64,000 nucleotides of DNA from Acidimicrobiales bacterium. GTDB taxonomy: Bacteria; Actinomycetota; Acidimicrobiia; Acidimicrobiales; DATDAH01. Both the position numbers and the translations under genes were made by a program. This document shows positions 15,966-43,006 of the stretch, in pieces. The stretch is taken from contig JBGAOY010000001.1 of NCBI GenBank assembly GCA_044221555.1, positions 135,793 through 199,792 of the forward strand, written 5' to 3'. Each line of letters begins with the position of its first letter. The stretch's first letter is position 1. The notes below the pieces were generated by a model. It saw only the letters and a program-made list of their open reading frames with translations, did not search any database and was not told the origin of the DNA.

Positions 15966-15996
15966 GTCGTGTCTGCTCCCCGGTCCGCCGCCGGCC

Positions 15997-19221: not shown

Positions 19222-20415
19222 TCAGCGGCGGCGAGCGGCGTCGTCGGCGAGCGCCTGGAGCACCGTCTGCGCGCTGGCCGCCCACGTGAACCGGGACGCG
19301 TGCTTCACGGCCCCGGTGCCCAGGTCGGCGAGCAGCGCCGGGTCGTCGAGCAGGCGCCCGATGGCATCGGCCATCTCGACCTCACCCTCGACGAGCAGCC
19401 CGCTGACACCATCGTCGACGGCCTCGGTGTGCCCGGGGATGCGCGACGCGACCGCCGGCGTGGCGCACGCTCCGGCCTCGGTGAGGGTCATGCCCCACCC
19501 CTCCAGCAGCGAGGCGTTGGCCACGAACCACGCCTCCTGGTAGGCGGCCACCAGCCCCTCGTCGCTCACCCGGCCGCGGAACTCGAGCCAGTCGCTCATG
19601 TCGAGGTCGCGGGCGAGCCGCTCGAGATCGGCCCGCGACGGGCCGTCGCCCACGACGACGGCCCGCAGCTCGGGGTGCTCGCGGTGGGCGCGGGCGATGG
19701 CCCGCAGCGTGGTGTCGAAGCCCTTCTGGGGCATGAGCCGACCGACCGCCGCCACCAGCGGGGTGGGGGAGCGGCGGCCACCCGGTCGGAAGCGGGGATC
19801 GACCCCGTTGGGGGCCACACGGATGTCGGCGTGGGTGAGGCCGAGGCGCTCGATGACCTCGGTGCGGGTGGACTCCGACGGGGTGACGAGGGTGGCGTTG
19901 CGATACACGACGGGGATGGCGTAGCGCTCGAGCACGTGGCCGACCTGGGCCAGTCCCGGCGGGAGGAGGAGGTGCCAGGCCCCGAGGTGGACGTGGTGCA
20001 CGAACCCCACCCGGGGACCGCGGGCCCACAGCGGCGAGAAGAACGCCACGCCGTGGAACACGTCGACCAGCCCGTCGCGGGGCCCGGCCCGGCCCGACAC
20101 CTCGCGGGCGATCGTGCGGGGGAACACGGTGAGGCGCCCACCGTGGCGGACCACCGAGTACCCGTCGCGGGTGGCCGTGGCCGGGCGGCCCGCGGCGGCG
20201 GAGGTGTGGATGGTGACCTCCAGGCCGGCGTCGGCCCAGTGCCGGGCCAGCTGCGACGCGTGCTCCTCGGACCCCCCGGCCTCGGGATCGTCGTGGTCGC
20301 GCCACGCCACGACGTGGATCCGCCGGATCCCGGCGGCGTCAGCGGTCCGGCGGAGGGTCTCGGCGGAGGGTGGCGGGGGAGGGTCGCCGGGAGGAGGCGC
20401 TGCCGGGTCGGTCAC
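19222..20415 (-). CDS. Glycosyltransferase family 4 (GT-B, group 1)
   Basis: The ORF is 397 aa. The C-terminal motif EGWGMTLTEAGACATPAVASRIPGHTEAVDDGVSGLLV is the GT1/GT4 E-x7-E region. The start is a GTG at 20415. Confidence 0.85.
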   Translation of the reverse strand: MTDPAAPPPGDPPPPPSAETLRRTADAAGIRRIHVVAWRDHDDPEAGGSEEHASQLARHWADAGLEVTIHTSAAAGRPATATRDGYSVVRHGGRLTVFPRTIAREVSGRAGPRDGLVDVFHGVAFFSPLWARGPRVGFVHHVHLGAWHLLLPPGLAQVGHVLERYAIPVVYRNATLVTPSESTRTEVIERLGLTHADIRVAPNGVDPRFRPGGRRSPTPLVAAVGRLMPQKGFDTTLRAIARAHREHPELRAVVVGDGPSRADLERLARDLDMSDWLEFRGRVSDEGLVAAYQEAWFVANASLLEGWGMTLTEAGACATPAVASRIPGHTEAVDDGVSGLLVEGEVEMADAIGRLLDDPALLADLGTGAVKHASRFTWAASAQTVLQALADDAARRR

Positions 20416-20435
20416 TCTTCTACTATCGCCTCTCC
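20416..20435. promoter_or_regulatory. 20-bp divergent spacer between the GT4 and GT2-MT start codons; possible leaderless-transcript promoter core
   Basis: The sequence tcttctactatcgcctctcc is a locally AT-richer patch. A TACTAT hexamer ends 9 nt before the ATG at 20436. No room is left for separate leaders with Shine-Dalgarno sites. Confidence 0.25.
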
Positions 20436-21977
20436 ATGGCCCCGGCCCGGACGCTCGTCATCCCGATGTACCGAGAGGCGGCGCGCATCGGGTCCACCTT
20501 GGCGGCCCTGGCCGCGTCCGCGCTCAACGAGCGGGGCACCGAGATCCTGCTGGTCGACGACGGGAGCGACGACGGCACGCCCACCATCGCCAAGTCGGTG
20601 GCCGCCGACCTCGGGCTGGCCGTCACCGTCGTCGAGTTGGGGGTGAACCAGGGCAAGGGTGCGGCGGTGCGCGCCGGGATGCTCGCCAGTCGGGGTGCGG
20701 TGGTCGCGTTCGCCGACGCCGATCTGGCCAGCGACGCGGTGGACATCGAGGCGTGCTTCCGCCGTGTCGAGGCCGGGCCCGACGACGTGGTCGTCGCGAC
20801 CCGCTCCCACCCGGACAGCACGATCACGGTGGCGGCACCCCGTCACCGGGTGGTCATCGGTCGCACCTACAACGCCTTCCTCCGTCGCCTCGACCTCACC
20901 GACAGCCTCGACACGCAATGCGGGTTGAAGGGCTTCACCGCCGACGCGGCCCGGCGCCTGTTCGGCCCGCTGCGCACCACGGGGTTCGCGTTCGACATCG
21001 AGGTGCTGGCTCGGGCGCGCCAGTGCGGGCTCTCGGTCGGCGAGATGCCGATCGCCTGGGGCCACGTGGAGGGGAGCCGGGTGGGCATGCGCAGCGGGCT
21101 GCGCTCGTTCACCGACGCGGTGGCGATCCGTCGGGCGCTCGGGCCGAGCCGGCCCCGTCACGAGCCCCCGGGTGACCGCGCCCCCACCGCCATGAGCGAG
21201 GGCAAGTACGACGTCATGGCCGCAACCGAGCGGGACCACTGGTGGTTCCGGGCCAAGCGGTCGCTGGTGGTGCAGGAGGCCCTCCGCTCCGGGGTGGACC
21301 GTTGTGGCCTGGCGGTCGACGTGGGGTGTGGCACCGGGGCCGTGCTCGACACCTTGTCGCACCGGTTCGCCAGGGTGGTGGGCACCGACCTGAGCCCTCG
21401 TGCGGCGGCGCTGGCGGCACGCCTCGTGGGGCCGGCCACGGGGCCCGTGCTGGCCAGGGCCGAGGCGTTGCCGCTGCCGTCGGCGTCGGCCTCGCTGGTG
21501 ACCAGCCTCGACGTCCTCGAGCACCTCGACGACGACGTGCAGGCACTGCGGGAGCTGCGGCGGGTCACGGCCCCGGGTGGACTGCTGGTGCTGGCGGTGC
21601 CGGCGTACGAATGGGCGTGGAGCGATCACGACGACGTGCTCGGGCATCGCCGGCGCTACACCGCCCCCCGCCTGCGCAGGGTGGTCGAGGACGCCGGCCT
21701 CGAGTGCGTCCGCGTGACGTACTTCCACTCATGGCTGGCTCCGATCGCCTTCCTCCTGCGCCGCACACCGCTGCGGCGCCTGGTGGGCGGCGACCAGGAG
21801 GAGGCCAGCTACGTCAGCCCTGCGGTCAACCGCGCCTTCGTGGCCGTCACCACCCTCGAGCGGTGGCTCATCCGGTGGCTGGCGCTTCCGTTCGGTCTGT
21901 CGATCCTGCTGGTGGCGCGGCGCCCGGCTTCGGGCGGAGCCACGGAAGGCCGGGCCACGACGCGGGCACCAGGCTGA
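20436..21977 (+). CDS. Fusion protein: GT2 polyprenyl-phosphate glycosyltransferase (dolichyl-phosphate glucosyl/mannosyl-transferase-like) plus class I SAM-dependent methyltransferase with a C-terminal TM
   Basis: The N-terminal half reads LVIPMYREAARI..ILLVDDGSDDGT..FADADL..QCGLKGF..FAFDIEVL (GT2, DXD). The C-terminal half reads VDVGCGTGAV..LVTSLDVLEHLDDD..LRELRRVTAPGGLLVLAVP (Methyltransf_11/23-like), followed by the hydrophobic tail WLALPFGLSILLVA. I trimmed the start to the ATG at 20436. Confidence 0.8.
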   Translation: MAPARTLVIPMYREAARIGSTLAALAASALNERGTEILLVDDGSDDGTPTIAKSVAADLGLAVTVVELGVNQGKGAAVRAGMLASRGAVVAFADADLASDAVDIEACFRRVEAGPDDVVVATRSHPDSTITVAAPRHRVVIGRTYNAFLRRLDLTDSLDTQCGLKGFTADAARRLFGPLRTTGFAFDIEVLARARQCGLSVGEMPIAWGHVEGSRVGMRSGLRSFTDAVAIRRALGPSRPRHEPPGDRAPTAMSEGKYDVMAATERDHWWFRAKRSLVVQEALRSGVDRCGLAVDVGCGTGAVLDTLSHRFARVVGTDLSPRAAALAARLVGPATGPVLARAEALPLPSASASLVTSLDVLEHLDDDVQALRELRRVTAPGGLLVLAVPAYEWAWSDHDDVLGHRRRYTAPRLRRVVEDAGLECVRVTYFHSWLAPIAFLLRRTPLRRLVGGDQEEASYVSPAVNRAFVAVTTLERWLIRWLALPFGLSILLVARRPASGGATEGRATTRAPG

Positions 21978-25998: not shown

Positions 25999-26726
25999 GG
26001 GGCCGCCAGCAGCTGGTCGTGGAGGGAACGGGCCTGGTCCACCAGGGCCTGCTGGCGCGGCTCGGCGAGACGGGCACTGAGCCGGGCGCGGGCCTCGGCC
26101 CGGCTGGCGTCGGGTCGGGCGACGGCTTCCCGGTAACGCGCTCGGCCGTGCACCGCCAGCTGCTTGTCGTCGATGACCGCGAACACCCGCGCGACGTTGT
26201 CGGGCGTGTGGTCGAAGCGGGCGAAGGAGGTGCCGAACCGGGTGTTGAGCCGATCGACCACCGGGCCGAAATCGGTCGTGGCCTCGTCGAAGGTGACGAG
26301 CAGCAGGTCACCGAGGAGTGGCTGGATCTGGCGGTGGTAGTGGATCCAGTACCGCACGAGGTGCTCGACCCGGTGGTGCGGGTCGGCGATGGCCATCGAC
26401 ACCGCGGCGTCATGCGGGTCGCGCAGCAGCACCATGGTCGGCACCCCCCGGCGGGTCGCGAGCTTCACCTGGGCCGGCAGGTGCACGTGGCTCGCGACCA
26501 CGACGGGTCGCGGCTGGCTGAAGGCGAAGGCCTTCGCCGCGAAGGTGTTGCCCGAGCGGGGGAAGCCCTCGATCACCAACTCGGTGCGCGCCGTGATGGC
26601 GCGTTCGCGAGCGCTCTCCGGGGTCAGGGCCCGCTGGAGCGGGAGGAACGCCGGGGCATCGCCGAGCAATTCGTGGGCGCGGCGGACGAGCCGTCGTCCG
26701 TGCACCCGGGCGGCCGCGGTGCTCAT
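25995..26726 (-). CDS. Sulfotransferase-family protein (putative, PAPS-dependent)
   Basis: The ORF is 243 aa and soluble. LVIEGFPRSGNTFAAK resembles the 5'-phosphosulfate-binding loop (PxSGTT type). VLLRDPHDAAVSMA resembles the 3'-phosphate-binding RxPxDxxxS motif. Confidence 0.5.
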   Translation of the reverse strand: MSTAAARVHGRRLVRRAHELLGDAPAFLPLQRALTPESARERAITARTELVIEGFPRSGNTFAAKAFAFSQPRPVVVASHVHLPAQVKLATRRGVPTMVLLRDPHDAAVSMAIADPHHRVEHLVRYWIHYHRQIQPLLGDLLLVTFDEATTDFGPVVDRLNTRFGTSFARFDHTPDNVARVFAVIDDKQLAVHGRARYREAVARPDASRAEARARLSARLAEPRQQALVDQARSLHDQLLAAP

Positions 26727-31000: not shown

Positions 31001-31968
31001 ACGAACGTGACCAGCACGCCCAGGGCGGTCTCGTAGTAGTAGGTGCCGCCGGGCAGGCGCTCTGCGCCCGACGCGTCGCTGAAGTAGCTGAGCCAGAACC
31101 CGAGCCCCCGCCACGACTCCGCCCACGACGACGTCTCGTTGACCCGTTCGGGCAACTCGGTGAACTGCAGCCGCTGGGCCAGGGGGTCGCTGCCGAGCAG
31201 GGTCTTGGCCAGGGCCGCGGCCGTCGTGAGCACGGTGAGCGCAGCGGCGCGTGCCAACCATCCGGCCACCTGGCGCCAGGTGGCCCGACGGTCCACGACG
31301 ACGAGCCAGATCGCCGCGGGCACGAGCCACAGCACGGCGAAGAACGTGCCGGGGGTGTCGGCGTTGCCGGCCGAGAACACGAGGAGCGCGAAGCCGGCGG
31401 CCCACCGCCACGGGCGCGTGCTGCCGACGCCGCGCAGGAACATGACCAGCAGCCACGGCGCGATCGCGTAGTTCCAGAAGAGCACCGACGGCAGCAGGAA
31501 CGTCGCGGTGAAGGGGTTGAACATGTAGAGCAGGCCGGCGAGCAGCGCGGCCGGCCCGACCCTGCCCAGGAAGACCCGCAGCAGGCTCACCATGCCGAGC
31601 CCGGCGATCACCAGCACCCCGGCGTGCCAGACGTGCTCGGTGAGCGGCGCGGAGAGGCCGAGCCCGCGCAGCACGGCGATGGGGTAGCTGACGGGCCAGA
31701 ACTCCTCGCCCACCCGCCCGATCCCGCGGCTGGCGTCCCACAGGCCCGACTCGCGCAGGAGTCGGGCGGCAGGCCCCCAGAACTGCTCGAAGCGGTTGTC
31801 GCCGACGTAGTCGCCGGGGTCGTTGGTGAGGGTGGCGACGAGGGCCAGCGCCGCGAACAGCAGCCCGGTCGGCCAGAGTCGGTCGCGGGTCACGTCGGGC
31901 AGGATCCAGCCGGTCCCGGTGGACGCGGGCGCGCGCAACTGGTCGGGGGTGTCGCGCTCGTGGCTCAT
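28096..31968 (-). CDS. AftD-like giant GT-C glycosyltransferase, divergent paralog 3
   Basis: The ORF is 1290 aa with the same overall architecture: an N-terminal polytopic domain, a large extracytoplasmic region with NAFDGNYTTSWLTG and AAIDGDPATAWAVP discoidin-like motifs, and a C-terminal TM. The first loop is divergent (DYVGDNRFEQFWGPAARLLRESGLWDASRGIG). Confidence 0.6.
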   Translation of the reverse strand: MSHERDTPDQLRAPASTGTGWILPDVTRDRLWPTGLLFAALALVATLTNDPGDYVGDNRFEQFWGPAARLLRESGLWDASRGIGRVGEEFWPVSYPIAVLRGLGLSAPLTEHVWHAGVLVIAGLGMVSLLRVFLGRVGPAALLAGLLYMFNPFTATFLLPSVLFWNYAIAPWLLVMFLRGVGSTRPWRWAAGFALLVFSAGNADTPGTFFAVLWLVPAAIWLVVVDRRATWRQVAGWLARAAALTVLTTAAALAKTLLGSDPLAQRLQFTELPERVNETSSWAESWRGLGFWLSYFSDASGAERLPGGTYYYETALGVLVTFVAPVTAAVVLWKSRWRARSLFGALALVSLVLMVGSYPPSDPPPTGWLLLRAYDAVPGLASLRNTYKAGSGLMMAVAALVGVGVAIAAPRLERTRPGWRALPGAVAVVVVLAVSLPFWNGGLYPERNHLSDVPTYWQDALSYLDARPGSGRVLVLPGTTKTAYRWGEPGDDIFDTYLHRHPNVISNAFPLSGPQSANLVDALEARIADGTLGPGELGPIARALGVDRVLIRNDLDWEQSQVVRPGDLDLVRHDPDLELDRRFGDAGQSVVDPADRSYAGTTERSLPPVEIYTVRDAAPTTAPPGLARPDVPPLLVSGDGGAWPVAAAAGVLDGQRPVAYTGDLDAASLLQALDDGSPLVVTDTNRRRLTRIRGAVPTQSHTLSEGQDLDQPAQDLFGRPGTQSVAEFQDATAIEASSSGTRITGFQPWLRPANAFDGNYTTSWLTGGLEDPTGAFLRVQFAQPETIDRLSLLPFLPSDAGRRVTDVSLHFSSGEPVPVHLEEGGTTEVRIPARQTTFLELRIDDVSRAGTAAVGFREIAIPGVDLTEVIAIPDDVATAAASDGRLRAALADAPLRYLFDRVQGTGAQDEEVVVRRSFRVAAPRTFDLSGRLGLDVRTTDLELDRFLSGFRDDGVSAHGSTRAQGALENRGLAAIDGDPATAWAVPPRDGEELTILFPTQTVSRIQVTSPADAESSPVNRVDVLVGGREESLDLETAEGCDDTDCEQTGTLEIPPTEADKVVVRLASTVAGGANGNRPARLSEVAVSDGDGPPVRADGDVDGTACNDTVLTVDGRPRGIRLAPGDLDRALDGEQVPFTGCDGITVPAGRHVLATADAIVDAVGLASGSIAPAAAVDEPSVEVLARDAGHLRLRVESAGDTLVSTGQSFDPGWRATADGADLGPARPVGTLATWSLPAGEHVVDLTYAPERTYRGALVATLVGVVLCVAILLRPALRARAPRPTTSPRRPA

Positions 31969-33197
31969 GCAGTCGGCCGTACGGGCTGGCTGGCGCCGGC
32001 CGGCGTGCCGGGACGCTTGGGCAGCGTGGGCAGGCCGAGGTTGCGGAGGCGGGAGGTCGGGCGCTCGACGGTCAGGTAGGTGACCGCGGAGGCGGTGATG
32101 GAGAGCACGAGCGCGATGTAGAGGGTGGGCCAGAAGGCCGCGACCTCCTTGCCGCCGAGCCAGTCGGCGGCGTGGATGAGGAACAGCATGTGCCAGAGGT
32201 AGATGCCGTAGCTGAGCTCGCTCATGACCCGCAGCGGTCTACTACCGAGGGCGCGGTGAGAGAGCGCGGCCTCCCGTCCCAGCACCGCGGGGATGAAGAC
32301 GAACAGCGCCGCGAGGGTGTAGAGCAGGTAGCGGGCCATCTGGTCGGACGGGGTCAGCTTGAAGGCGTCGATCGGGTTGATACGCGACAGCGGCAGGTGC
32401 AGCTGGCCGAGGAGCACGAACATCCCCAGCGCCGCGCCGAAGCACACCGCGGGGCGGTCGGCGAGCCAGCGCGCCGCCCGGGGGACACCGCCGCCCTGCT
32501 CCGCCCAGGTCACTCCCACCGCGAAGGCCATGCCGAGCCCGAAGAAGTCGGCCTGGGACGGCAGCCAGATGTCGACGAGGCGCGTGGTGCCCTGGAGCAA
32601 CCAGAAGCACCGCCACACCGGTCCGATCAGGGCGAACAGGGCCACCATCATGATCTCGCCGTTGAGCCGGGCCCGCCGTGAGGTGCCGAGCCGCTTGGCG
32701 ATGGCCCGTGCCGCCAGTGCCAGGAGCGGCACGACCAGGTAGTAGCTGACGTCCACCGCGAGCGTCCACGCCGCGAGGATGCCCCGGCCGAAGGTGGCGG
32801 GGGAGTAGATCTGGAAGAGGGCGTAGACCCGGATGTAGCCCCAGAGCCCCGGCACGTTCTGGTTGCCCTGCAGGAAGTAGACGGTGACGACCACCCAGTA
32901 CAGGGGGTAGATCCGCAGCAGTCGCTGCCACAGGAACCGCCGGGTGGCGGGGGCCGGCCGGTTCTGGAGATGGCGGGCGACGAAGGGCCGGTACACGAGG
33001 AATCCGGACATGGTGAAGAAGATGACCACCGCGAAGTAGCCGGTGAAGTTGGCGCCCAGCACCGGATGGTCTTCGACGACGCGCAGCCCCTCGGCGGCGT
33101 GGCACACCACGACCAGCAGGCACGCCAGTGCGCGGTACCCGTCGAGCGGCGCGAAGCGGCCGGCCCGGCTGAGCTTGAACGGGGCCAGCGCGTTCAC
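31965..33197 (-). CDS. Acyltransferase family 3 (OafA/YrhL-like membrane O-acyltransferase), copy 1
   Basis: The ORF is 410 aa. FAPLDGYRALACLLVVVCHA and the 10-TM pattern are typical of Acyl_transf_3. Confidence 0.8.
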   Translation of the reverse strand: MNALAPFKLSRAGRFAPLDGYRALACLLVVVCHAAEGLRVVEDHPVLGANFTGYFAVVIFFTMSGFLVYRPFVARHLQNRPAPATRRFLWQRLLRIYPLYWVVVTVYFLQGNQNVPGLWGYIRVYALFQIYSPATFGRGILAAWTLAVDVSYYLVVPLLALAARAIAKRLGTSRRARLNGEIMMVALFALIGPVWRCFWLLQGTTRLVDIWLPSQADFFGLGMAFAVGVTWAEQGGGVPRAARWLADRPAVCFGAALGMFVLLGQLHLPLSRINPIDAFKLTPSDQMARYLLYTLAALFVFIPAVLGREAALSHRALGSRPLRVMSELSYGIYLWHMLFLIHAADWLGGKEVAAFWPTLYIALVLSITASAVTYLTVERPTSRLRNLGLPTLPKRPGTPAGASQPVRPTA

Positions 33198-34525
33198 GGC
33201 GGCGGCCCACCGTTCGACGGGGCGGGAGCCACCTCGGCGACCGTCGCCTGGTCCGACGTCGCCACGTCAGCGATCGCCTCGTCAGCGGTCGCGTCGTCAG
33301 CCGTCGCCGCCTGCGAGCGGCCGTGGCTCGACGACGGCAGGACGCGCGAGGTGGCCGAGAGGAGGCCGCCGAGCCGCACGCGCTGGATCGGTCGCTCGAG
33401 CAGGACCCAACTGGCCGAGGCGATGACCGCGGTGATCGCCAGCGTGGCGCCGAACAGCGGCCAGTACGAGACCGAGTCCCCTCGGTCGATCCCCTTCGTG
33501 AGCAGGTAGAGCACGAGCAGGTGCCAGAGGTAGATCCCATAGGACACCTCGCCGGTCCATCGGACCGGGACCGACCGCAGGGCGCGGCGGTACCACGTGC
33601 GCTGCTGGTTCCCGAAGACCAGCGGGGCGAGGAGCAGGAAGCCGACGAGCCCGTAGCAGACGTGGCGGGCGAGCTCGTCGCCGAGGCTGCGCGGGGCGAA
33701 GCCGGTGGGGACGTCGAGCATCGCGACCACCCACACCAGCTCGAGGGCGATGGCCACCCCGAGCAACGGGTAGCGCCCCAGGTAGCGGAAGACGGCGGGG
33801 AGCGGCCCACCGGCCTTCTGGCGGGCACGCACCACGGCGATCACCATGCCCATCGCGAAGAGGTCGGTCCAGGCCAGGAAGCCGGCCAGGGCGCCCGGGT
33901 ACACCTTGTCGGTGACGAGCCACCGGGCGGTCACCCCCACCGCGTACAACAGGACCAGGCCGAGCCATTCGGCGCTCAGCCGGCCGTCGCGCCCGATCAG
34001 GGTGCCGAGGCGGCGGATGCCCCAGGCGTACAGCGGCAGCACCACGTAGAAGGTCAGCTCGATGGTGAGGGTCCAGGCGACCGCGATGCCGGTGAGGCCG
34101 AGGGACCGCGAATACCCCTGCAGCAGCGAGACCCGGAGCAGGAGGTGGTCGGTGATCGAGGCACGGATCGCCGGCGAGGCCAGCAGGATGAACGCCGCCA
34201 GCGCCAGCCAGTAGGCGGGGAAGATCCGGAGGAACCGGCGCCGGAAGTAGGGGCCGAGGGCCGGCGCCGGGCGCCGGCCGAGGTGGGCGACGACGAAGGG
34301 CCGGTAGAGCAGGAACCCGGAGATGGCGAAGAAGATCGAGACGCCGAGCCGGCCGAGCTGGTTGGTGTAGTCGGCCACCCAGCTGTCGCCGGCGTTGACG
34401 CCCGTGGCCGGCCCCGCGACGTGGAACGCCACGACCATGATCGCCGCGGCGGCCCGCAGGCCGTCGATGCACGGGAAGTAGCGGTCGGGCTGCGAGCGCG
34501 ACGGGGCAGCGCCCGACGGTGTCAC
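33194..34525 (-). CDS. Acyltransferase family 3, copy 2
   Basis: The ORF is 443 aa. FPCIDGLRAAAAIMVVAFHV is present and the protein is colinear with copy 1. It has an acidic, Ala/Thr-rich C-terminal tail. Confidence 0.8.
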   Translation of the reverse strand: MTPSGAAPSRSQPDRYFPCIDGLRAAAAIMVVAFHVAGPATGVNAGDSWVADYTNQLGRLGVSIFFAISGFLLYRPFVVAHLGRRPAPALGPYFRRRFLRIFPAYWLALAAFILLASPAIRASITDHLLLRVSLLQGYSRSLGLTGIAVAWTLTIELTFYVVLPLYAWGIRRLGTLIGRDGRLSAEWLGLVLLYAVGVTARWLVTDKVYPGALAGFLAWTDLFAMGMVIAVVRARQKAGGPLPAVFRYLGRYPLLGVAIALELVWVVAMLDVPTGFAPRSLGDELARHVCYGLVGFLLLAPLVFGNQQRTWYRRALRSVPVRWTGEVSYGIYLWHLLVLYLLTKGIDRGDSVSYWPLFGATLAITAVIASASWVLLERPIQRVRLGGLLSATSRVLPSSSHGRSQAATADDATADEAIADVATSDQATVAEVAPAPSNGGPPP

Positions 34526-35715
34526 GGCGCCGAGGTCGTCGTCGACGAGCCCCCCGCTCCCGAACCCGAGCCGTTGCCCCCGCCACCGCCACCGCCACCG
34601 CCACCGGTGATCGGCACCCCGCCGGGCAGGCCGGCGACGAAGTCGTCGAACCGGGCATCGGTGGAGTCGGGCCCGCGAGCGGTGATGCCGACCTTGCCCG
34701 CGTCGACCTGGAAGTCGTCCACGATGGTCTTGCGGATCCGGCCGTTGATGATCACCTCGATGGTGTCGCCGCGGAGGCGCACACCCACCGTGGTGCCGTC
34801 GGCGGTGGGTGACTGGCCGGTGTTGCCCACGACCTCCTGGTCACCGTCGACGACCTTGATCACGTTCCAGGTGGCGACGTCGGGGACGGCGACGACCGCC
34901 CAGTAGTTGTACGGGCCGACGTAGCGGAACACGAGGCCCGAGTTGGTGACGACCTTGTCGAGCCGGACCTGCGCGCCCCCGTCGCCCTGGCCCAACCCGA
35001 TCACGGCGTGGTTGCGGAACTCGCCGCCCCGCACCAGGTACGCCTCGTCGGCGTCGATGCCCCAGGTGCCGGTCTCGGGGCTCCACGGCCGTCCGGGGGC
35101 GAAGTCGCCGAGCGTCGTGTCGGAGTCGGCCCGGTCGAACTGGTCGGTGGTGCCGAAGATGCCCACGTCGGTGCGGGCGTCGGCTGCGGTCGAGTCGTTG
35201 CCGCCGCCACCGCCGCCGCCACCTCCACCGTCACCACTGGTGGCGATGAGGACGCCGACGATGGCGATGGCCACGAACGCCACCACCGCCCCGACGACGA
35301 GCATCACCCGGCTGGGCCCCTCGTCGTCGAGGTCGTCGTCGTAGTCGCCCTCACCGTGGTCGAGGTCGCCGTCGCCGTCTCCCTCGGCGTCGCCGGTGTC
35401 CGTGGCCGCGTCCTTGCCGCCGACGTCGGCGTGCACGTCGAACGGCTCGGCCAGCGGTGGCAACTCGTGTGGAGCGTCCTCGTCGTCGGCCGCGTCGGTG
35501 GCGTCTGGCGTGTCGTCGTGGGCCAACCCGCCGGCGTCGGCCGGCTCGCCGGCGTCGCCCGGCCCGTCCGAGCCGTCGGTCTCGTGCCCCTCGGGGGGCG
35601 CGTCGGGCCCCTCGTCGGCCTCGTTGTCGGCGGTGGTCGCTGCACCGGGGGCGTCGCTGCCGTCGAGATCGGGGTCGGTGGCCTCGTCGTCGGCCTCGGT
35701 CTGGTTCGAAGTCAC
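34522..35715 (-). CDS. Single-pass membrane protein: acidic disordered N-terminus, TM, Gly10 linker, ConA/LamG-like jelly-roll domain, Gly10 linker
   Basis: The ORF is 397 aa. Residues about 1-135 are extremely Asp/Glu/Gly/Ala-rich. The TM is VMLVVGAVVAFVAIAIVGVLIA. The folded region reads ..WGIDADEAYLVRGGEFRNHAV..VTNSGLVFRYVGPYNYWAVV..GVRLRGDTIEVIINGR..GITARGPDSTDARFDDFV, which resembles DUF1080/LamG-type lectin folds. Confidence 0.6.
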   Translation of the reverse strand: MTSNQTEADDEATDPDLDGSDAPGAATTADNEADEGPDAPPEGHETDGSDGPGDAGEPADAGGLAHDDTPDATDAADDEDAPHELPPLAEPFDVHADVGGKDAATDTGDAEGDGDGDLDHGEGDYDDDLDDEGPSRVMLVVGAVVAFVAIAIVGVLIATSGDGGGGGGGGGGNDSTAADARTDVGIFGTTDQFDRADSDTTLGDFAPGRPWSPETGTWGIDADEAYLVRGGEFRNHAVIGLGQGDGGAQVRLDKVVTNSGLVFRYVGPYNYWAVVAVPDVATWNVIKVVDGDQEVVGNTGQSPTADGTTVGVRLRGDTIEVIINGRIRKTIVDDFQVDAGKVGITARGPDSTDARFDDFVAGLPGGVPITGGGGGGGGGGNGSGSGAGGSSTTTSAP

Positions 35716-35840
35716 AGTGGAACTATCCTAGGTTGGTCCACGTGCCCGGACGGGCCGCGCCCGCCGAAGTGTCGGCCCGGCGCCAGGTCCGTCCCCGGTC
35801 GTTCGCCCGTCCCTGTCCTCGGCCACCCCGGATCCCTTCC

Positions 35841-36644
35841 ATGAGCAACGACGCCGCCGCCACCTCGTCCCTCGAGCCCCGATCCGACGCGGTCGAGGGG
35901 CCGGCCCGACGGTTCTCCGACGTGCTGGCGTCGGTCGCCCACGTCGAGGGGTGGATGACGCCCGCGCAGGCGCGTTGGCTGTGGGACCGGGCATCGGTGC
36001 TGCGGCCTCCGGCCACCGTGGTCGAGATCGGCAGCTACCGGGGGCGGTCGGCAATCATCCTGGCCAGCGCCGCGGCACCCGGGGTGGACGTCATCGCCAT
36101 CGACCCCCACGGCGGCAACGACCGCGGCCCCCAGCAGATCAAGGCCGTCCCCGAGGAGGGCCAGCGCGACAACGACGCGTTCAACGCCAACCTCGAGGCG
36201 GCCGGGGTGGCCGACCGCGTGCGTCATGTGCGGCGGCCCAGCCAGGAGGCCCTCGACGCGGTCGAGGGGCCCGTCGACCTGCTCTACATCGACGGCGCCC
36301 ACCGGTACGGCCCCGCCCGAGACGACATCCGCCGCTGGGGCGACCGGGTGGCCGACGGGGGCACGCTGCTGATCCACGACTCGTTCAGCTCGGTCGGCGT
36401 CACCCTCGCCATCGTCACGTCGCTGTTCTTCGGGGGACGCTTCCGCTACCTCGGTCGCACCACGTCGATGACCGCCTACCGCTGCGAGCGACTGGGCGCG
36501 GCCGACCGGGCCCGGAACGCGCTGGCGCAGGCCGCGCAGCTGCCCTGGTTCGTGCGCAACGTGATCGTCAAGACGCTGATCCTGGCCAAGCTCGACTCGG
36601 TGGCCCGTCTGCTCGGCCACCACGACCAGGTCTGGCCCCACTGA
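35841..36644 (+). CDS. Class I SAM-dependent methyltransferase (Methyltransf_24-like)
   Basis: I trimmed the track ORF to the ATG at 35841 (MSNDAAATSS..). Motifs are VVEIGSYRGRSAIILA, IDPHGGND, LLYIDGAHRYGPARDDIRRWG and GGTLLIHD. Confidence 0.65.
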   Translation: MSNDAAATSSLEPRSDAVEGPARRFSDVLASVAHVEGWMTPAQARWLWDRASVLRPPATVVEIGSYRGRSAIILASAAAPGVDVIAIDPHGGNDRGPQQIKAVPEEGQRDNDAFNANLEAAGVADRVRHVRRPSQEALDAVEGPVDLLYIDGAHRYGPARDDIRRWGDRVADGGTLLIHDSFSSVGVTLAIVTSLFFGGRFRYLGRTTSMTAYRCERLGAADRARNALAQAAQLPWFVRNVIVKTLILAKLDSVARLLGHHDQVWPH

Positions 36645-36681
36645 GCCCCGCCGCGGTGAGGCAGACCCCGAGCCGGCGGCG

Positions 36682-38040
36682 GTGACCACGACCGGGGGTC
36701 GGGCGCCGCGTTCGCGACCCGGGTCCCTGGTGGAGGACCACGGTCACCTGCTCCGCGGCTCCGCGTGGCTGTTGGTCAGTGTGGCGGCCAACGCCGTCGG
36801 GGGGTTCGCCTTCTGGCTCATCGCCGCTCGCATCGACTCGAACGACGACGTGGGGCGGGCCGCCGCCCTGTTCACCTCGGTGATGTTCGTCAACTACGCC
36901 ACCAACATGGGCCTCCCGGTGGCGGTCGCCCGCTATTCGCCCGACGACGGGGCCCCCTCGACGGTCCTGTTCAACTGGTCCATCCTCTACACGGCCGCCT
37001 CGTCGCTCGTCGGCACCGCGCTGTTCCTCGCGTTCCTGCCCGACTCGGTGGCCGACACGCTGTGGCAGTGGGGGCTCCCGGCCGGTGTCCTGATCTTCCT
37101 GTCCGTCGTGTTCGGGATGTCGTGCGCGGTCCTGGTCGAGGTGCGCCTGATGGCGCTGCGCCGGTGGGGATGGGTGTTCACCCGGGTGGCGGTCGTAGGG
37201 CTCGTGCGGTTCGCGTTCGTGCTGGTGCACCCGCTCGACGACGAGGCGCTGTGGCTGTTCCTCGTGGTGGCCGGCATACCGGCCCTGTCCGGGATGGTCG
37301 GTTACGTGGTGCTGCTGGCCCGGCGCCGTTCCCCGCACCCGCTCCGGCCGCTCCCCGCCAACTGGCGAGCGGGCCTGCGCTACTCGTGGGTCAACTACCT
37401 CGGCGTCCTCGCGGTGCAGGCTGCCACCTTCGCGCTGCCCCTGCTGGTGTCCATCGAGGTCGCCTCCGGTGACTACGCCGCGTTCTACGTGGCGTTCAGC
37501 ATCACCAGCGTGATCTTCCTCGTCCCGCACACCCTCGGCCAGGTGTTGCTGGTGGAAGGGGGCAAGGACGGCGCCGACCTGGGCCACCAGGTGCGCCTGG
37601 CGCTGGTGCTGGCCCTCGGCTTCATGGTCGTCGTGGCCGTCGGTGGCCGGGTGGCAAGCGGCTTGGTCACCGACATCTACGGGCCCGACTACGCCCCGGC
37701 GGCCAGGATCCTGCCCACCCTCGTGCTGGCGGGCGTGGGCTGGGCGATCACGTCGATCTGCCTCACCAAGGCACGCGTGCAGGAGCGCGTCGGGGCCATC
37801 GTCACCATCGCCACGGCGCTGGCCCTCGGCATCCTGCTCCCGGCGCTGGTGTTGGTGGCCGACGACGGCATCGACGGTGCCTCCCGGGCCTGGCTGGTCG
37901 GGAACGCCATCGCCGCGGTCACGGCGGTGGTGGTGACGGCGCGCAACAGCCGTCAGGGGGCGTTGGCCGCCGACGCGGCGTGGCTCGACGCGTCGGACGG
38001 CGACGAGACGAGCGCGTCCCGTGCCCTCAGCCCCGGCTGA
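36682..38040 (+). CDS. Polysaccharide/oligosaccharide flippase-like membrane protein (MOP/Wzx superfamily)
   Basis: The ORF is 452 aa with about 12-14 TM. The N-terminal LLRGSAWLLVSVAANAVGGFAFWLIAARI pattern is typical of polysaccharide biosynthesis (Wzx-like) proteins. The start is a GTG. Confidence 0.5.
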   Translation: MTTTGGRAPRSRPGSLVEDHGHLLRGSAWLLVSVAANAVGGFAFWLIAARIDSNDDVGRAAALFTSVMFVNYATNMGLPVAVARYSPDDGAPSTVLFNWSILYTAASSLVGTALFLAFLPDSVADTLWQWGLPAGVLIFLSVVFGMSCAVLVEVRLMALRRWGWVFTRVAVVGLVRFAFVLVHPLDDEALWLFLVVAGIPALSGMVGYVVLLARRRSPHPLRPLPANWRAGLRYSWVNYLGVLAVQAATFALPLLVSIEVASGDYAAFYVAFSITSVIFLVPHTLGQVLLVEGGKDGADLGHQVRLALVLALGFMVVVAVGGRVASGLVTDIYGPDYAPAARILPTLVLAGVGWAITSICLTKARVQERVGAIVTIATALALGILLPALVLVADDGIDGASRAWLVGNAIAAVTAVVVTARNSRQGALAADAAWLDASDGDETSASRALSPG

Positions 38041-39901
38041 CGCCGCCGCGGCGCGTCACCGCGTCCGAGCGACGTGGCCGTGGGTCGCCGGCGTGGCCGT
38101 CGGCCTGCTCGTGCTCGGGCCCGCGCTGGCCCCGGGCGCGCTGTTCAACCTCGACCTGGTGCTGACCCCGGTCATCCCCGTGCCCCAGGGGGTGTGGGGC
38201 CTCGGTCCCGAATTGCCGCGGCGCCTCCCGTTCATGGTGCCGCTGGCGTGGCTGTCCTCGGTGGTCGACGGGGCCGCGGCCGCCAAGGTGGCGCTCGTGG
38301 CCCTCTTCGCGGCCGCGTTCGTTGGGGCGCAGCGCCTCGTCGGCGATCGCGAGGCGCTCACCCGCCTCGGTGCCGGGCTGCTCTACGCCTCCAGCCCCTT
38401 CCTGGTCACCCGGGTGGCCACCGGCTACCTGGGCGTGGCGTTGGTGGCGGCGGTGCTGCCGTGGGTGCTGCCGCGCCTGCTGCGGCCCTCGTCGTCCGGC
38501 CGGCGCACCCTGCTGGCGGCCGCGGCGCTCGGGATGTGCGGGGTCACCGGCGGCATCGTGGCCGTGCTCGCGGTCGTCGCCGGTCTGGTCGCCGAGCGCG
38601 AACGGCGTCCCCTGATCGTGGCGGTCGGGGTGCTGGTGGGCCAGCTGCCGTGGTTGGTGCCCGGGATCGTCGTGTACTCGCAGGGGATCAGCCCCGCTGC
38701 CGCCGCCGACTTCGCCACCCGCGCGGACGGGGTGGGCGGGCCGTTCCGTGTGCTCGCGGGCCACGGGTTCTGGCAGGACACGTTCCAGGTCGGCCACGGA
38801 TGGGCCGGCGTGGCGGTCGTCGGTGCCGCGTTGTCGGCCCTGGCCGTGCTCGGCCACGGCGACCTGCCCGCAGCCTGGCGCCGTCCGGCCGGATGGCTGG
38901 CGGTGACCGGTGTGGTCGTCTCGCTGGCCAGCGTGGTGCCGGGCGCCCGGTCGGTCTACTCGGAGCTGGCCAGCACCTCCTTCGGTGCCCCACTTCGCGA
39001 GGGGCATCGGCTCCTGGTGCTCTACCTGGTGTGGATGGCGCCGGCCGCGGCCCTCGGCGCCCGTCGCCTGGCCACCGGGCAGACCGGCGCCCGGCGGCTC
39101 GCCCTCCTCGCCGCCCCGGCGGTGGTGGCGGCCTGGCTGGCCCTGCCCGGCCTGTGGGGGGCGGGCGGCCAACTCGATCCCGTTCAGATCCCTGCCGAGT
39201 GGGCCCAGGCGCGGTCCGTCGTGCACGACGCTCCCGGCCCGGTGGTGTCGCTGCCGTGGGCCCAGTACTTCAACCTCAACGTGGCCGGGGGCCGGCGGGT
39301 CAACGACGTCATGCCGCTCTACCTGGGGGGTGACGTGCTCACCGCGTCGGACCCCAACCTGGCCGAGCCCGCCCGTGAGCGGACCGACCGCCGCGAGCGG
39401 GAGATGGACCTGCTGGCACTGCGGATCCACGCCGGCGAGCCCGTCGGGGCCCAACTGGCCGACCTGGGCGTGCGCTGGGTGGTGCTCCAGCACGACATCG
39501 ACTGGCAGACCTACCTCTCGCTGCGCGACGACCCGGGCCTCGAGCGGGTCGTCGACGGGCCCACCCTGGAGCTGTTCGAGGTGACCGCCTGGCGCGGGCC
39601 GGTGGTGACCGACGACGGCGCCACCCTCGCCGCCGGCGGCCCGGCGGCACCGGTGGCCGACGTGGCCGCGTCGGGCGCCGCCACCTGGGCGCGGCCCGGC
39701 GCCCGTGGCTGGTTGCGGGGCCTGGAGCCGGCCGCCGTGGGTGCCGACGGGCAGCTCCGCCTGCCCGCCGGACGGGGCCTCGTCTGGTACTGGCCGACCC
39801 TGCTCGTCCTGCTCGGTGACGCGCTGTTCGTGGTGGCGGTGGCCCTCGCCGCGGCCGGGCGCTCACGGGAATCCACGTCTCGGTCGACAGACGTGCTATA
39901 A
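38021..39901 (+). CDS. Polytopic membrane protein with extracytoplasmic C-terminal domain and terminal TM; possible additional GT-C-type enzyme
   Basis: The ORF is 626 aa. The first loop GALFNLDLVLTPVIPVPQGVWGLGPELPRRLPFMVPLAW is followed by about 10 TM, a soluble roughly 200-aa region and a final TM LVWYWPTLLVLLGDALFVVAVALAAA. It ends in a rare TAA stop. Confidence 0.5.
   Translation: MPSAPADAAAARHRVRATWPWVAGVAVGLLVLGPALAPGALFNLDLVLTPVIPVPQGVWGLGPELPRRLPFMVPLAWLSSVVDGAAAAKVALVALFAAAFVGAQRLVGDREALTRLGAGLLYASSPFLVTRVATGYLGVALVAAVLPWVLPRLLRPSSSGRRTLLAAAALGMCGVTGGIVAVLAVVAGLVAERERRPLIVAVGVLVGQLPWLVPGIVVYSQGISPAAAADFATRADGVGGPFRVLAGHGFWQDTFQVGHGWAGVAVVGAALSALAVLGHGDLPAAWRRPAGWLAVTGVVVSLASVVPGARSVYSELASTSFGAPLREGHRLLVLYLVWMAPAAALGARRLATGQTGARRLALLAAPAVVAAWLALPGLWGAGGQLDPVQIPAEWAQARSVVHDAPGPVVSLPWAQYFNLNVAGGRRVNDVMPLYLGGDVLTASDPNLAEPARERTDRREREMDLLALRIHAGEPVGAQLADLGVRWVVLQHDIDWQTYLSLRDDPGLERVVDGPTLELFEVTAWRGPVVTDDGATLAAGGPAAPVADVAASGAATWARPGARGWLRGLEPAAVGADGQLRLPAGRGLVWYWPTLLVLLGDALFVVAVALAAAGRSRESTSRSTDVL
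39874..39895 (+). promoter_or_regulatory. Inverted repeat at the extreme 3' end of the upstream CDS, about 40 nt before the LAxTG gene start
   Basis: cacgtct-cggtcgac-agacgtg is a 7-bp perfect stem or half-site pair around a GTCGAC core. A low-GC patch with TATAAC follows immediately. Confidence 0.25.
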
Positions 39902-39935
39902 CTTCGTCTTGTTCATCTGTCTTGGGAGGACATCC

Positions 39936-40535
39936 GTGACGAGTACGGCACTGCGCAACATTTTCCGAGCAGTCCTTGGTGGGCTGTTCCTCAGCGGCAT
40001 GTTGCTTGTCGCGACCCTCGGCCCGGCGTCGGCGCAAGCCGGCGGGCAGGAGGACCAGGACCCCGGCGCCTTCGTGGACGACCAGGGCAACTTCGACATC
40101 GACGCGTACATCGCGGCGTCCACCGGCTCGGACGACGGCTGTTCACCGGCCAGCGCCGCGGTCGGCGACACCGTGACCTGCACCGTGCACGGCTACAACG
40201 CCGGCGACACGGTCACCGCCACCCTCACCTGCGGCCCGACCGTCGTGTTCGAGGGCCCGTCCACCGGCACCACCTTCACCTTCTCGTTCGTCGTCCCCGA
40301 CGTGCCGGCCGGTGACTGCGGAGTCGAGGTGTGCGGGACCGACACCGGGGGTGAGGCCTTGTGCCGTGTCCTCGGCTTCGAAGTGGTCGGCAACGAGGTC
40401 ACCACGGGCTCGCTGGCCCGCACCGGTTCCAACAACACGGGCACGCTCGTCGGCGTGGGCGCGGCCCTCGTGGTGCTCGGCGGGGCTGCCGTGTTCGGCG
40501 CCCGTCGTCGCTTCAAGACGACGACCACCGCCTGA
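39936..40535 (+). CDS. Cell-wall-anchored surface protein with LAxTG (class E sortase) sorting signal
   Basis: The GTG at 39936 is preceded by GGGAGGA. The signal peptide is ..LFLSGMLLVATLGPASAQA. The C-terminal sequence LARTGSNNTGTLVGVGAALVVLGGAAVFGARRRFK gives motif, hydrophobic span and a positively charged tail. Confidence 0.75.
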   Translation: MTSTALRNIFRAVLGGLFLSGMLLVATLGPASAQAGGQEDQDPGAFVDDQGNFDIDAYIAASTGSDDGCSPASAAVGDTVTCTVHGYNAGDTVTATLTCGPTVVFEGPSTGTTFTFSFVVPDVPAGDCGVEVCGTDTGGEALCRVLGFEVVGNEVTTGSLARTGSNNTGTLVGVGAALVVLGGAAVFGARRRFKTTTTA

Positions 40536-42945: not shown

Positions 42946-43006
42946 GGTGGTCGACGCTACCTGCCAGGCCCCCGGGCGGCCCGCCCGTGTGTGCGACCCT
43001 GACCTG

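Follow-up and report, generated by a model that had tools for sequence, protein, structure and literature searches.

Background

The tmaT locus of Corynebacterineae comprises aftD, tmaT/Rv0228, lmcA/Rv0227c, mmpA/Rv0226c, cgp_3166/Rv0225, cgp_3167 and mtrP/Rv0224c. In C. glutamicum, TmaT, MmpA, Cgp_3166 and MtrP are required for the formation and transport of acetyl-TMM (PMC8698533; bioRxiv 10.64898/2026.07.31.741767), and an interaction of AftD with TmaT has been reported (bioRxiv 10.64898/2026.07.15.738315 and 10.64898/2026.07.31.741767). Mycobacterial AftD (PDB 6W98/6WBX/6WBY) combines a GT-C domain at its N-terminus with periplasmic CBMs and a TM bundle at its C-terminus, and its residue D474 is essential (Tan et al. 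2020). An earlier note on the DNA described here held that AftD is characterised only in mycolate actinobacteria, but Tan et al. (2020) had already described homologs from 11 further orders. Other GT-C enzymes work in polyprenyl-phosphate pathways (PpgS/Rv3779 in GalN addition, Ppm1 with PimE/MptA/MptB in mannan synthesis, ArnC/ArnT), whose common logic is that the donor is made inside and used outside. Here, we describe a cluster from an uncultured Microthrixaceae bacterium of the class Acidimicrobiia, a mycolic-acid-free actinobacterium. The gene set aftD-tmaT-mmpA, which tuberculosis researchers at present associate with the export of mycolic acids, is matched in this organism.

Organization and conservation of the cluster

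The cluster spans about 21 kb (19222-40535) of the window, by which we mean the whole 64-kb stretch of DNA analysed (73% GC). All genes listed in the earlier note were present at their coordinates (Table 1), in agreement with third-position GC (frame plot) across the window. The proposed arrangement of two divergent operons was borne out by the gene starts: the leftward operon (35715 to 21868) has seven genes with a 4-bp stop/start overlap at every junction, and the rightward operon begins with ATG at 35841 (protein start MSNDAAAT). No sigma-70-type consensus was found in the region between them. AMP-binding ligases flank the cluster on both sides.

The whole gene order is collinear in five Microthrixaceae loci, and three or four distant Acidimicrobiales MAG loci share the core in a rearranged order; the grouping of these genes is therefore beyond chance. 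The rearranged loci L010, L011 and L013 keep AftD2, AftD3, AT3, the domain of the acidic protein, Wzx, u458, the MmpA-like protein, GT4, GT2 and Methyltransf_11.

Table 1. Features of the cluster and its surroundings (positions within the window)
Feature	Position	Strand	Evidence or remark
PMT_2-type GT-C genes bordering AftD1	1..999 and 4934..6184		PMT_2 3e-10 and 6.5e-6 (Pfam)
AftD-like 1 (AftD1), third paralog, outside cluster	693 to about 4937-5018	-	PF11847 2.1e-76; CBM_AftD 3.8e-8
AMP-binding ligases	7484..9157 and 40685 to ~42180		Pfam
SLT_2/Rpf-like lytic transglycosylase	17955..19172	-	PF13406 1.2e-7; adjoins GT4 in L005-L009
GT4, cytoplasmic, resembles Rv0225/Cgp_3166	19222..20415	-	Glycos_transf_1 2e-31; Glyco_transf_4 4.5e-15 (Pfam)
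GT2 (DPM1/ArnC/PpgS-like) fused to Methyltransf_11	20370..21977	+	Glycos_transf_2 9e-26; Methyltransf_11 1.6e-22 (Pfam)
AftD-like 2 (AftD2), 1376 aa	21868..25998	-	PF11847 (GT-C_AftD) 8.8e-227, 754.6 bits
Sulfotransferase-fold protein, cytoplasmic, 243 aa	25995..26726	-	AF2 fold and motifs; large family without Pfam model
Polytopic membrane protein u458, 458 aa	26723..28099	-	About 12 hydrophobic segments
AftD-like 3 (AftD3), divergent paralog, 1290 aa	28096..31968	-	PF11847 1.6e-63; CBM_AftD 4e-12
AT3 membrane O-acyltransferase a	31965..33197	-	Acyl_transf_3 2.7e-28; translationally coupled to AftD3
AT3 membrane O-acyltransferase b, TmaT-like	33194..34525	-	Acyl_transf_3 8e-31
Single-pass membrane protein, acidic	34522..35715	-	One hydrophobic segment, 139-157
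Leftward junctions	34522/34525, 33194/33197, 31965/31968, 28096/28099, 26723/26726, 25995/25998	-	4-bp overlaps
Divergent intergenic region	35716..35840	.	125 bp between gene starts 35715 (-) and 35841 (+)
Class I SAM methyltransferase (Methyltransf_24), cytoplasmic	35841..36644	+	PF13578 1e-22; frame plot
MOP/Wzx-like polytopic membrane protein, tentative	36682..38040	+	Polysacc_synt E 6.4e-6, 26.2 bits (cut-off 28.2)
MmpA/Rv0226c homolog u626, 626 aa, GT-C "mini-AftD" without CBMs	38021..39901	+	NCBIfam, hhalign, AF2/Foldseek
Small secreted sortase substrate	39933..40535	+	LARTG, TM segment, RRRFK tail

Match to the tmaT locus of Corynebacterineae

We compared the cluster with the tmaT locus of Nocardia sp. 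CS682, and four genes matched it gene by gene: AftD2 (E 1e-84), the adjacent TmaT-like AT3, an MmpA-like protein and an Rv0225-like GT4. The GT4 is 32% identical to its Nocardia counterpart over the full length (E 1.5e-49, 162 bits); the closest solved GT4, MshA, aligned with 82.8 bits over the C-terminal half only. AT3b is 33% identical to Nocardia TmaT over the full length (E 2.9e-35) and AT3a 29% (E 1.7e-24). By pairwise scores and synteny, the GT4 and the AT3 are putative orthologs of Rv0225 and TmaT, respectively.

The MmpA-like protein, u626, had been listed as another polytopic membrane protein. It matched the NCBIfam model for MmpA (NF053599) with E 3.9e-52 and 177.6 bits, under the cut-off of 210, and aligned with Nocardia MmpA over 508 columns (hhalign Prob 99.7, E 2.9e-25) and with the N-domain of AftD (Prob 99, E 6e-18). 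In its AF2 model (pLDDT 91), the best Foldseek match was AftD (6WBY, E 4.8e-10), followed by DPY19, STT3, EmbA and PglB. By sequence and predicted structure, u626 is a homolog of MmpA/Rv0226c and resembles GT-C enzymes.

The two loci share a full-length AftD, an AT3 beside it, an MmpA-type GT-C without CBMs, a related GT4 and a Methyltransf_11 domain, which is fused to GT2 in the Acidimicrobiia cluster. They differ in that the cluster has two AT3 genes and two AftD paralogs (a third lies close by), and in its additional sulfotransferase, Methyltransf_24, MOP-like protein, polytopic protein of unknown family, acidic single-pass protein and sortase substrate. A counterpart of LmcA/Rv0227c was not found in the cluster by comparison with the Nocardia locus or by hhalign, and the host is a mycolate-free member of the Acidimicrobiia with no CmpL/MmpL or mycolate genes in view. 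In evolutionary terms, the cluster is probably the counterpart, in a mycolate-free host, of the aftD-tmaT-mmpA-Rv0225 locus. The earlier note held that the polymer is probably something other than arabinogalactan/LAM and may be undescribed; it missed the four-gene match, by which the locus does have a known counterpart. No DPA or Emb genes lie in the window.

Since TmaT, MmpA, Cgp_3166 and MtrP serve acetyl-TMM in C. glutamicum, the product of the cluster could be an exported envelope glycolipid, acylated and possibly also sulfated and methylated, rather than a polymer, as has been proposed for corynebacterial tmaT/mmpA/mtrP. The AMP-binding ligases on both flanks would fit, as would the cytoplasmic sulfotransferase, by comparison with Stf0, which serves sulfolipid-1. 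However, the ligases are not retained in the distant related loci, RND/MmpL transporter, Pks and trehalose genes were not found in the window, and the CBMs on two giant AftD paralogs argue for a glycan acceptor. We consider a glycolipid product unlikely. Our preferred reading, held with moderate confidence, is that this conserved Acidimicrobiia locus assembles and decorates a cell-envelope glycan, be it a wall polysaccharide or a lipoglycan.

AftD-like proteins and the transferred sugar

The three giant proteins indeed belong to the AftD/GT-C family, as had been proposed, with strong matches to Pfam GT-C_AftD (Table 1). AftD2 is the one nearest to mycobacterial AftD: it matched M. abscessus AftD (PDB 6W98) with E 1e-169 over residues 14-841 and 924-1343 and has the same order of N-terminal GT-C domain, CBMs (F5_F8_type_C and CBM_AftD in Pfam) and C-terminal TM bundle. 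Four of the five essential residues (K39, D41, E251 and K361) are retained, but D474 is replaced by Asn, a feature of AftD2 across this clade. AftD3 is only 25-27% identical to AftD2; in its active-site motif, DNRFEQ, K39 is changed to R and D41 to E, and E251, K361 and D474 are retained. In AftD1, D41 is changed to Y and K361 to R. Because of D474N in AftD2 and the deviations at K39/D41 in AftD1 and AftD3, some of the paralogs may have a regulatory instead of a catalytic role. The ACP-binding region of mycobacterial AftD aligned poorly here.

The likeness of AftD2 to M. abscessus AftD, in architecture and in four of five essential residues, would also be expected if the cluster were an ordinary arabinan locus (AG/LAM-like) and AftD2 a true arabinofuranosyltransferase, supplied with decaprenyl-phospho-arabinose by genes at another place in the genome; in mycobacteria, too, the DPA genes are unlinked to aftD. 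As the earlier note had stated for DPA, Emb/AftA-C and mycolate genes, however, profile searches of the 64-kb window and of the sequences flanking nine related loci found no UbiA, DprE1/2, Emb, AftA-C or mycolate genes. Moreover, the D474N exchange speaks against this function, and the cluster has its own candidate for a donor synthase in GT2. A cultured Acidimicrobiia strain of a different family contained rhamnose, ribose, mannose and galactose as whole-cell sugars but no arabinose (PMC12263773). An arabinan locus thus appears improbable, and the transferred sugar is probably not arabinofuranose.

Proposed assembly and decoration of the glycan

The inventory agrees with the pathway suggested earlier, of a lipid-linked donor, a flippase, extracytoplasmic GT-C enzymes and decoration enzymes, with the reservation that the flippase scored below the Pfam cut-off. 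In the first step, the GT2 domain would transfer sugar from a nucleotide sugar to polyprenyl phosphate at the cytoplasmic face. Its top NCBIfam GT2 match was PpgS and its top PDB GT2 matches were ArnC, PcManGT, GtrB and DPMS, in line with the polyprenyl-phosphate-sugar synthase type named before, but with scores far under every equivalog cut-off. The fusion protein, which may start at about 20436 according to homolog alignments, is a candidate polyprenyl-phosphate-sugar synthase and methylase, although it had no strong TM segment in a hydrophobicity scan, which speaks against this class. As in known pathways, the GT2 adjoins GT-C genes, but it is fused to a methyltransferase and lacks a TM anchor, and the putative flippase resembles MOP rather than GtrA or SMR proteins. 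The GT4 may build or extend a membrane-bound primer.

The earlier note had methylation and sulfation act on the finished polymer. However, neither the methyltransferases nor the sulfotransferase had a signal peptide or hydrophobic segment in sequence scans, and they need SAM or PAPS; therefore, they should act in the cytoplasm before the flip. Methyltransf_11, Methyltransf_24 (kept in L005, L007, L009 and L011) and the PAPS-type sulfotransferase would thus modify lipid-linked sugars prior to export, and O-acylation would probably occur outside. The sulfotransferase call proved sound despite the lack of a Pfam match above threshold (best 14 bits): in its AF2 model (pLDDT 94.7), the top 50 Foldseek PDB matches were all PAPS sulfotransferases, and the motifs FPRSGNT and RxPxDxxxS are invariant among its relatives. 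It shares the fold and both PAPS-binding motifs with Sulfotransfer_1/3 (and, by analogy, mycobacterial Stf0) but is a member of a distinct, large family of proteins of about 250 aa, with 3053 representatives. Fusions to GT2, GT4, Methyltransf_11, Wzy_C and Sulfotransfer_3 occur in this family and tie it to glycan synthesis.

The intermediates might then be flipped by the MOP-like protein, which has 11 hydrophobic segments and is kept in L005-L013. Outside, AftD2, AftD3 and the MmpA-like mini-AftD would transfer polyprenyl-phosphate-linked sugars to a glycan held by the AftD CBMs; these proteins have the fold and most of the catalytic residues, which points to transferase activity. Finally, the two AT3 enzymes encoded beside AftD3 would O-acylate the product. 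AT3-AftD adjacency is retained even in rearranged loci and parallels the reported AftD-TmaT interaction, and the AT3s could likewise be part of AftD-AT3 complexes. A MOP-like protein, GT2, GT4, AT3 O-acyltransferases and methyltransferases are also common to Wzx/Wzy-dependent polysaccharide loci, but here the candidates for polymerisation are GT-C enzymes, and the window yielded no phosphoglycosyltransferase for initiation, no Wzy and no chain-length regulator.

Membrane and surface proteins

Most earlier family assignments (AftD, AT3, GT4, GT2-methyltransferase, Methyltransf_24, sulfotransferase, LAxTG) held; that of Wzx is tentative, and the ConA-like label of the acidic protein found no support, since family searches returned no family. 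This protein has an acidic cytoplasmic N-terminus, one TM segment and an extracytoplasmic domain of about 190 aa between Gly runs, and the C-terminal domain is kept in L006-L013. The polytopic protein u458 had no Pfam or NCBIfam match; its 19 homologs were found in Acidimicrobiales only, and its gene lies downstream of AftD3 in L005-L011. Kinship of u458 with AftD, PMT_2, the Rv0227c-like protein or Wzy_C was also considered, but hhalign gave no link.

The predicted LAxTG surface protein was confirmed by LARTG, a TM segment and RRRFK and by a TIGR01167 score of 18.6 (cut-off 15.9), along with matches to LAETG/LAXTG models (NCBIfam). The GT-C enzymes could in principle act like those of the PMT/STT3 type and glycosylate this protein or others that are secreted, since the LARTG protein is Thr/Ser/Gly-rich and co-encoded in L005-L009 and L011 and PMT_2-type genes flank AftD1. 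However, L010 and L013 retain the core but lack the LARTG gene, enzymes of the AftD lineage bear CBMs and have glycans as their known substrates, and nothing in the cluster points to a peptide acceptor, which makes protein glycosylation very unlikely. In alignments of the LARTG protein, its homologs set in only at residues 73-84 of the longest open reading frame, which starts at 39705; hence, its true start is probably at about 39933.

Gene inventory of the locus

The genes between positions 19222 and 40535 make up a locus of the AftD lineage for an envelope glycan that depends on GT-C enzymes, and the core of this locus is homologous to the tmaT-aftD locus of the Corynebacterineae. The window has a GC content of 73%, and real genes were told apart from shadow open reading frames (ORFs) by third-position GC. 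Together with Pfam searches, this bore out the gene list drawn up for the region in an earlier note. Seven genes make up the leftward operon, with a 4-bp stop/start overlap at every junction, and the rightward operon begins with an ATG directly after the divergent gap. Scans for promoters, terminators, Rfam families and tRNAs gave nothing relevant.

Pfam identified both acyltransferases (AT3a and AT3b) as Acyl_transf_3 proteins and the SAM methyltransferase as Methyltransf_24, and it supported the GT4 as well as the fusion of a GT2 and a Methyltransf_11 domain in one protein. The proposed Wzx-like flippase fared less well: it does resemble Polysacc_synt (E = 6e-6), but the match is weak, with only 26.2 bits against a cut-off of 28.2. 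The surface protein was said to have an LAxTG motif, and indeed, LARTG is followed by TLVGVGAALVVLGGAAVFGA and then by RRRFK; thus, the C-terminal sortase motif, hydrophobic segment and basic tail of LPXTG-type proteins are all present, and TIGR01167 scored 18.6 (cut-off, 15.9). In the acidic protein, a single transmembrane (TM) segment is accompanied by an extracytoplasmic domain of ~190 residues that is conserved. Neither Pfam nor PDB searches gave any support for its "ConA-like" label.

Coordinates of features in the window (blank cells, nothing recorded)
Feature	Position	Strand	Remark
PMT_2-type GT-C gene	1-999		runs off window edge
AftD1	693-4937	-	
PMT_2-type GT-C gene	4934-6184		also weak match to NCBIfam "cell surface glycopolymer formation protein"
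AMP-binding (FadD-like) ligase	7484-9157		
Opp/Dpp-type ABC transporter	9705-18090		two SBP_bac_5, two permeases, two ATPases
GT4	19222-20415	-	
GT2-Methyltransf_11 fusion	20370-21977	+	
Leftward operon	35715 to 21868	-	
AftD2	21868-25998	-	
u243	25995-26726	-	243 aa
u458	26723-28099	-	458 aa, polytopic
AftD3	28096-31968	-	
AT3a	31965-33197	-	
AT3b	33194-34525	-	
Acidic single-pass protein	34522-35715	-	
Divergent gap	35716-35840		125 bp
Methyltransf_24	35841-36644	+	first gene of rightward operon
MOP/Wzx-like	36682-38040	+	
u626	38021-39901	+	626 aa
LARTG protein	to 40535	+	start probably nearer ~39933
AMP-binding (FadD-like) ligase	40685 to ~42180		start probably near 42180, since listed ORF start (42712) overlaps GDPD gene
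Glycerophosphodiester phosphodiesterase (GDPD)	42184-43251		
Patatin-like phospholipase	47448-48638		
MobA-like NTP-transferase ORF	52043-52591		
Rhodanese-domain ORF	52053-52958		overlaps MobA-like ORF in other frame
TauE/SafE sulfite exporter	54532-55452		

Three AftD paralogs with deviating active sites

The assignment of the three giant proteins to the AftD family was upheld by PF11847 (GT-C_AftD), which scored 754.6 bits for AftD2, 215.2 bits for AftD3 and 257.7 bits for AftD1, against a cut-off of 26. AftD2 matched the AftD of Mycobacterium abscessus (PDB 6W98) with an E value of 1e-169, with residues 14-841 and 924-1343 aligned. The architecture of AftD was also found, that is, an N-terminal TM domain, matches to CBM_AftD and F5_F8_type_C, and C-terminal hydrophobic segments. 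K39, D41, E251, K361 and D474 are essential in the mycobacterial enzyme (Tan et al.). AftD2 keeps four of these five residues and has Asn in place of D474; in AftD3, K39 is replaced by Arg and D41 by Glu; and in AftD1, D41 is replaced by Tyr and K361 by Arg. The Asn (residue ~476 of AftD2) is present in all AftD2 orthologs of the Microthrixaceae (loci L005 to L009), and the distant Acidimicrobiia (L010 and L013) keep the Asp. The complete five-residue signature is found in none of the three paralogs; their donor or acceptor specificity, and even their catalytic competence, may differ from those of mycobacterial AftD. Mycobacterial AftD binds ACP via a C-terminal helical bundle (R1389); the C terminus of AftD2 aligned weakly with 6W98, and the alignment stops short of the position of R1389.

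A second GT-C sub-cluster lies at the left edge of the window (1-6184), where AftD1 is flanked on both sides by PMT_2-type GT-C genes.

u626, an MmpA-like GT-C protein

The product of the third gene of the rightward operon, u626, had been listed simply as another polytopic membrane protein. It is polytopic, but profiles and a structural model indicate that it is more than that, namely, a GT-C homolog of MmpA (Rv0226c/NCgl2761). It matched the NCBIfam model for MmpA (NF053599) with an E value of 3.9e-52 and 177.6 bits, which is under the equivalog cut-off of 210. A profile of its homologs aligned by hhalign with MmpA of Nocardia over 508 columns (Prob 99.7) and with the N-terminal domains of AftD (Prob 99), and its topology agrees with that given for MmpA (PMC8698533). 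The AlphaFold model (pLDDT 91) had AftD (6WBY) as its best match, followed by DPY19, STT3, EmbA and PglB. An invariant Asp lies in an NLDL motif that resembles the TKLDL of AftD. Searches of PDB sequences with the single sequence or a profile gave no match, and the link to AftD was seen solely by hhalign and the fold search. Since the profile alignments reach both MmpA and AftD and the best match of the model is AftD, u626 is a GT-C "mini-AftD" that has no carbohydrate-binding modules (CBMs). The other polytopic protein, u458, was negative in hhalign comparisons with the AftD N-domain, a PMT_2 protein, the Rv0227c-like protein of Nocardia and a Wzy_C fusion.

Relation to the tmaT-aftD locus of the Corynebacterineae

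The tmaT locus has been described as conserved in corynebacteria and mycobacteria and MmpA as being without homologs outside these groups (PMC8698533). For comparison, the M. abscessus AftD sequence from the 6W98 alignment was used to find aftD of Nocardia sp. CS682, and its neighborhood was retrieved; the aftD locus of M. simiae was left out, as it has no tmaT within 10 kb. The Nocardia neighborhood comprises aftD, a DinB gene, an AT3 gene (TmaT), PorA, genes for proteins of 413, 101 and 678 aa (the last being MmpA), a GT4 gene and, running off the locus end, a methyltransferase gene. The reference record gives the Nocardia aftD itself (CP029710.1, 10001-14493) as two ORFs (1028 and 479 aa) with an overlap at 13054-13087, owing to a frameshift or an error of assembly.

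The GT4 of the window matched the Nocardia GT4 over its full length (residues 30-390) with 32% identity (E = 1.5e-49), longer and more strongly than any solved GT4. AT3b matched Nocardia TmaT over its full length with 33% identity (E = 2.9e-35), AT3a matched the same protein with 29% identity (E = 1.7e-24), and AftD2 was 34 to 49% identical to Nocardia AftD. The AT3 genes abut AftD3. The window locus thus shares AftD, a TmaT-type AT3, an MmpA homolog and a GT4 of the Rv0225/Cgp_3166 type with the Corynebacterineae, reproducing four genes of the tmaT locus with no mycolate genes in view: neither MmpL, Pks13 nor other mycolate genes were found in the window. The two loci differ in LmcA (Rv0227c/NCgl2760), the 413-aa protein of Nocardia, which has no counterpart among the window proteins. 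As for the methyltransferase MtrP (Rv0224c), the window encodes a Methyltransf_11 domain in the GT2 fusion; an 88-aa fragment of the Nocardia MtrP, which was used for the comparison, had no significant match.

Conservation in the Acidimicrobiia

With AftD3 as the query and one genome per species, nine loci were found, the best of them 95% identical, and all nine are from uncultured metagenome-assembled genomes of Microthrixaceae, Acidimicrobiales or Actinomycetota. When synteny was compared by tblastn with all window proteins, as the earlier note had proposed, five loci were fully collinear from an SLT_2 transglycosylase to an AMP ligase. The gene order was rearranged in three distant loci (42 to 44% identity), which still co-localize two AftD paralogs, AT3, the domain of the acidic protein, a MOP-like gene, u458, u626, GT4 and GT2. 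The adjacency of AT3 and AftD is retained in two of them (L010 and L013), and Methyltransf_11, fused to GT2 in the window, is a standalone protein in all three. Conserved as it is in collinear and rearranged loci alike, the locus is a genuine functional cluster, and the class that carries it is separate from the mycolate bacteria. Horizontal transfer from Mycobacteriales would offer another origin for the shared genes, but the base composition is uniform along the window and homologs of the MmpA-like protein in the Acidimicrobiia number in the hundreds; this explanation was set aside.

u243, a member of a large sulfotransferase-fold family

u243, called sulfotransferase-like from the sequence alone, had no family match above threshold, and searches of PDB sequences with the single sequence or two profiles gave no match. 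Its AlphaFold model (pLDDT 94.7) has the fold of PAPS-dependent enzymes: each of the best 50 PDB matches by Foldseek was a sulfotransferase in complex with PAP or PAPS (prob 1.0). Both PAPS-binding motifs, FPRSGNT (5'-PSB) and RxPxDxxxS (3'-PB), are invariant in the relatives of u243, 10 of 62 of which also had a weak match to Sulfotransfer_1. The call thus holds, with Pfam below threshold. The locus thereby exposes a sulfotransferase-fold family tied to glycan synthesis that has 3053 representatives and neither a Pfam nor an NCBIfam model. Its members are often fused to GT2, GT4, Methyltransf_11 or Wzy_C, and also to a canonical Sulfotransfer domain.

Sulfur-related genes, encoding rhodanese-domain, MobA-like and TauE/SafE proteins, are present ~12 to 15 kb to the right of the locus end.

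Proposed pathway and donor

What is said here on product chemistry, on the donor sugar and on what each paralog does is inferred. The nearest characterized relatives of the GT2 domain are the polyprenyl-phosphate glycosyltransferases PpgS, ArnC, PcManGT, GtrB and DPMS, all with low scores (53.5 bits for PpgS, with a cut-off of 370, and 33 bits for ArnC), and the protein has no hydrophobic segment or TM anchor. It had been proposed that the glycan is polymerized and then methylated and sulfated. This order had to be corrected: since the methyltransferases and u243 have no export signal and their cofactors are cytoplasmic, their most likely substrates are lipid-linked intermediates that have yet to be flipped. 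AT3 enzymes move acyl groups across the membrane; therefore, O-acylation could take place outside the cell. It is also outside that the AftD paralogs, which bear CBMs, and the mini-AftD would attach sugars. Of the parts of a Wzx/Wzy-dependent pathway, the MOP-family flippase has a candidate in the Polysacc_synt match below the Pfam cut-off; neither an initiating phosphoglycosyltransferase nor a Wzy polymerase was found among the window proteins, and u458 showed no kinship with a Wzy_C-containing protein. Arabinofuranosyl transfer by AftD draws on decaprenyl-phospho-arabinose (DPA). The lack of the DPA genes UbiA, DprE1 and DprE2 and of Emb and AftA-C genes noted earlier was confirmed for the window and extends to the flanks of the related loci. 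In one cultured strain of the Acidimicrobiia, arabinose was not among the whole-cell sugars (PMC12263773).

Implications for the tmaT-aftD module

The locus bears on the origin and primary function of the tmaT-aftD module. What MmpA, Cgp_3166/Rv0225, MtrP and the AftD-TmaT complex do is under active study in the field of the mycobacterial envelope: two preprints of July 2026 (10.64898/2026.07.15.738315 and 10.64898/2026.07.31.741767) reported that AftD interacts with TmaT and assigned MmpA, Cgp_3166 and MtrP to mycolate transport. In the Acidimicrobiia, a deeply branching class with no known mycolic acids, this set of genes is both conserved and enlarged, which points to an ancestral function centered on a glycan. 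We tentatively propose, as an idea with somewhat less than even chances, that the aftD-tmaT-mmpA-Rv0225 module is an ancient machine of the actinobacteria, older than mycolic acids, that assembles glycans outside the cytoplasm and couples this to O-acylation, and that its product in the Acidimicrobiia is an envelope glycan, as yet undescribed, with O-acyl, O-methyl and sulfate groups. If this is true, the requirement for the module in acetyl-TMM and mycolate transport in the Corynebacterineae would either have been acquired later, as an adaptation, or stem indirectly from a glycan that the module makes. The Acidimicrobiia locus also offers a comparative system to separate glycan function from mycolate transport. 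It also points to an uncharacterized wall polymer in the Microthrixaceae, which probably make an undescribed decorated glycan; the best-known member of this family causes bulking and foaming of sludge.

Neighboring genes

Genes for an Opp/Dpp-type ABC transporter lie to the left of the main locus, after the sub-cluster around AftD1. Its position beside the GT4 end is kept in the distant loci L011 (80-4463) and L012 (12843-14156), and this gene order hints that the transporter may be functionally linked to the locus. The region is bracketed by two genes for AMP-binding (FadD-like) ligases, the right-hand one of which also adjoins the locus in three relatives (L005, L007 and L009). The right flank further encodes an MFS transporter and two enzymes of lipid turnover, the glycerophosphodiester phosphodiesterase and the patatin-like phospholipase.
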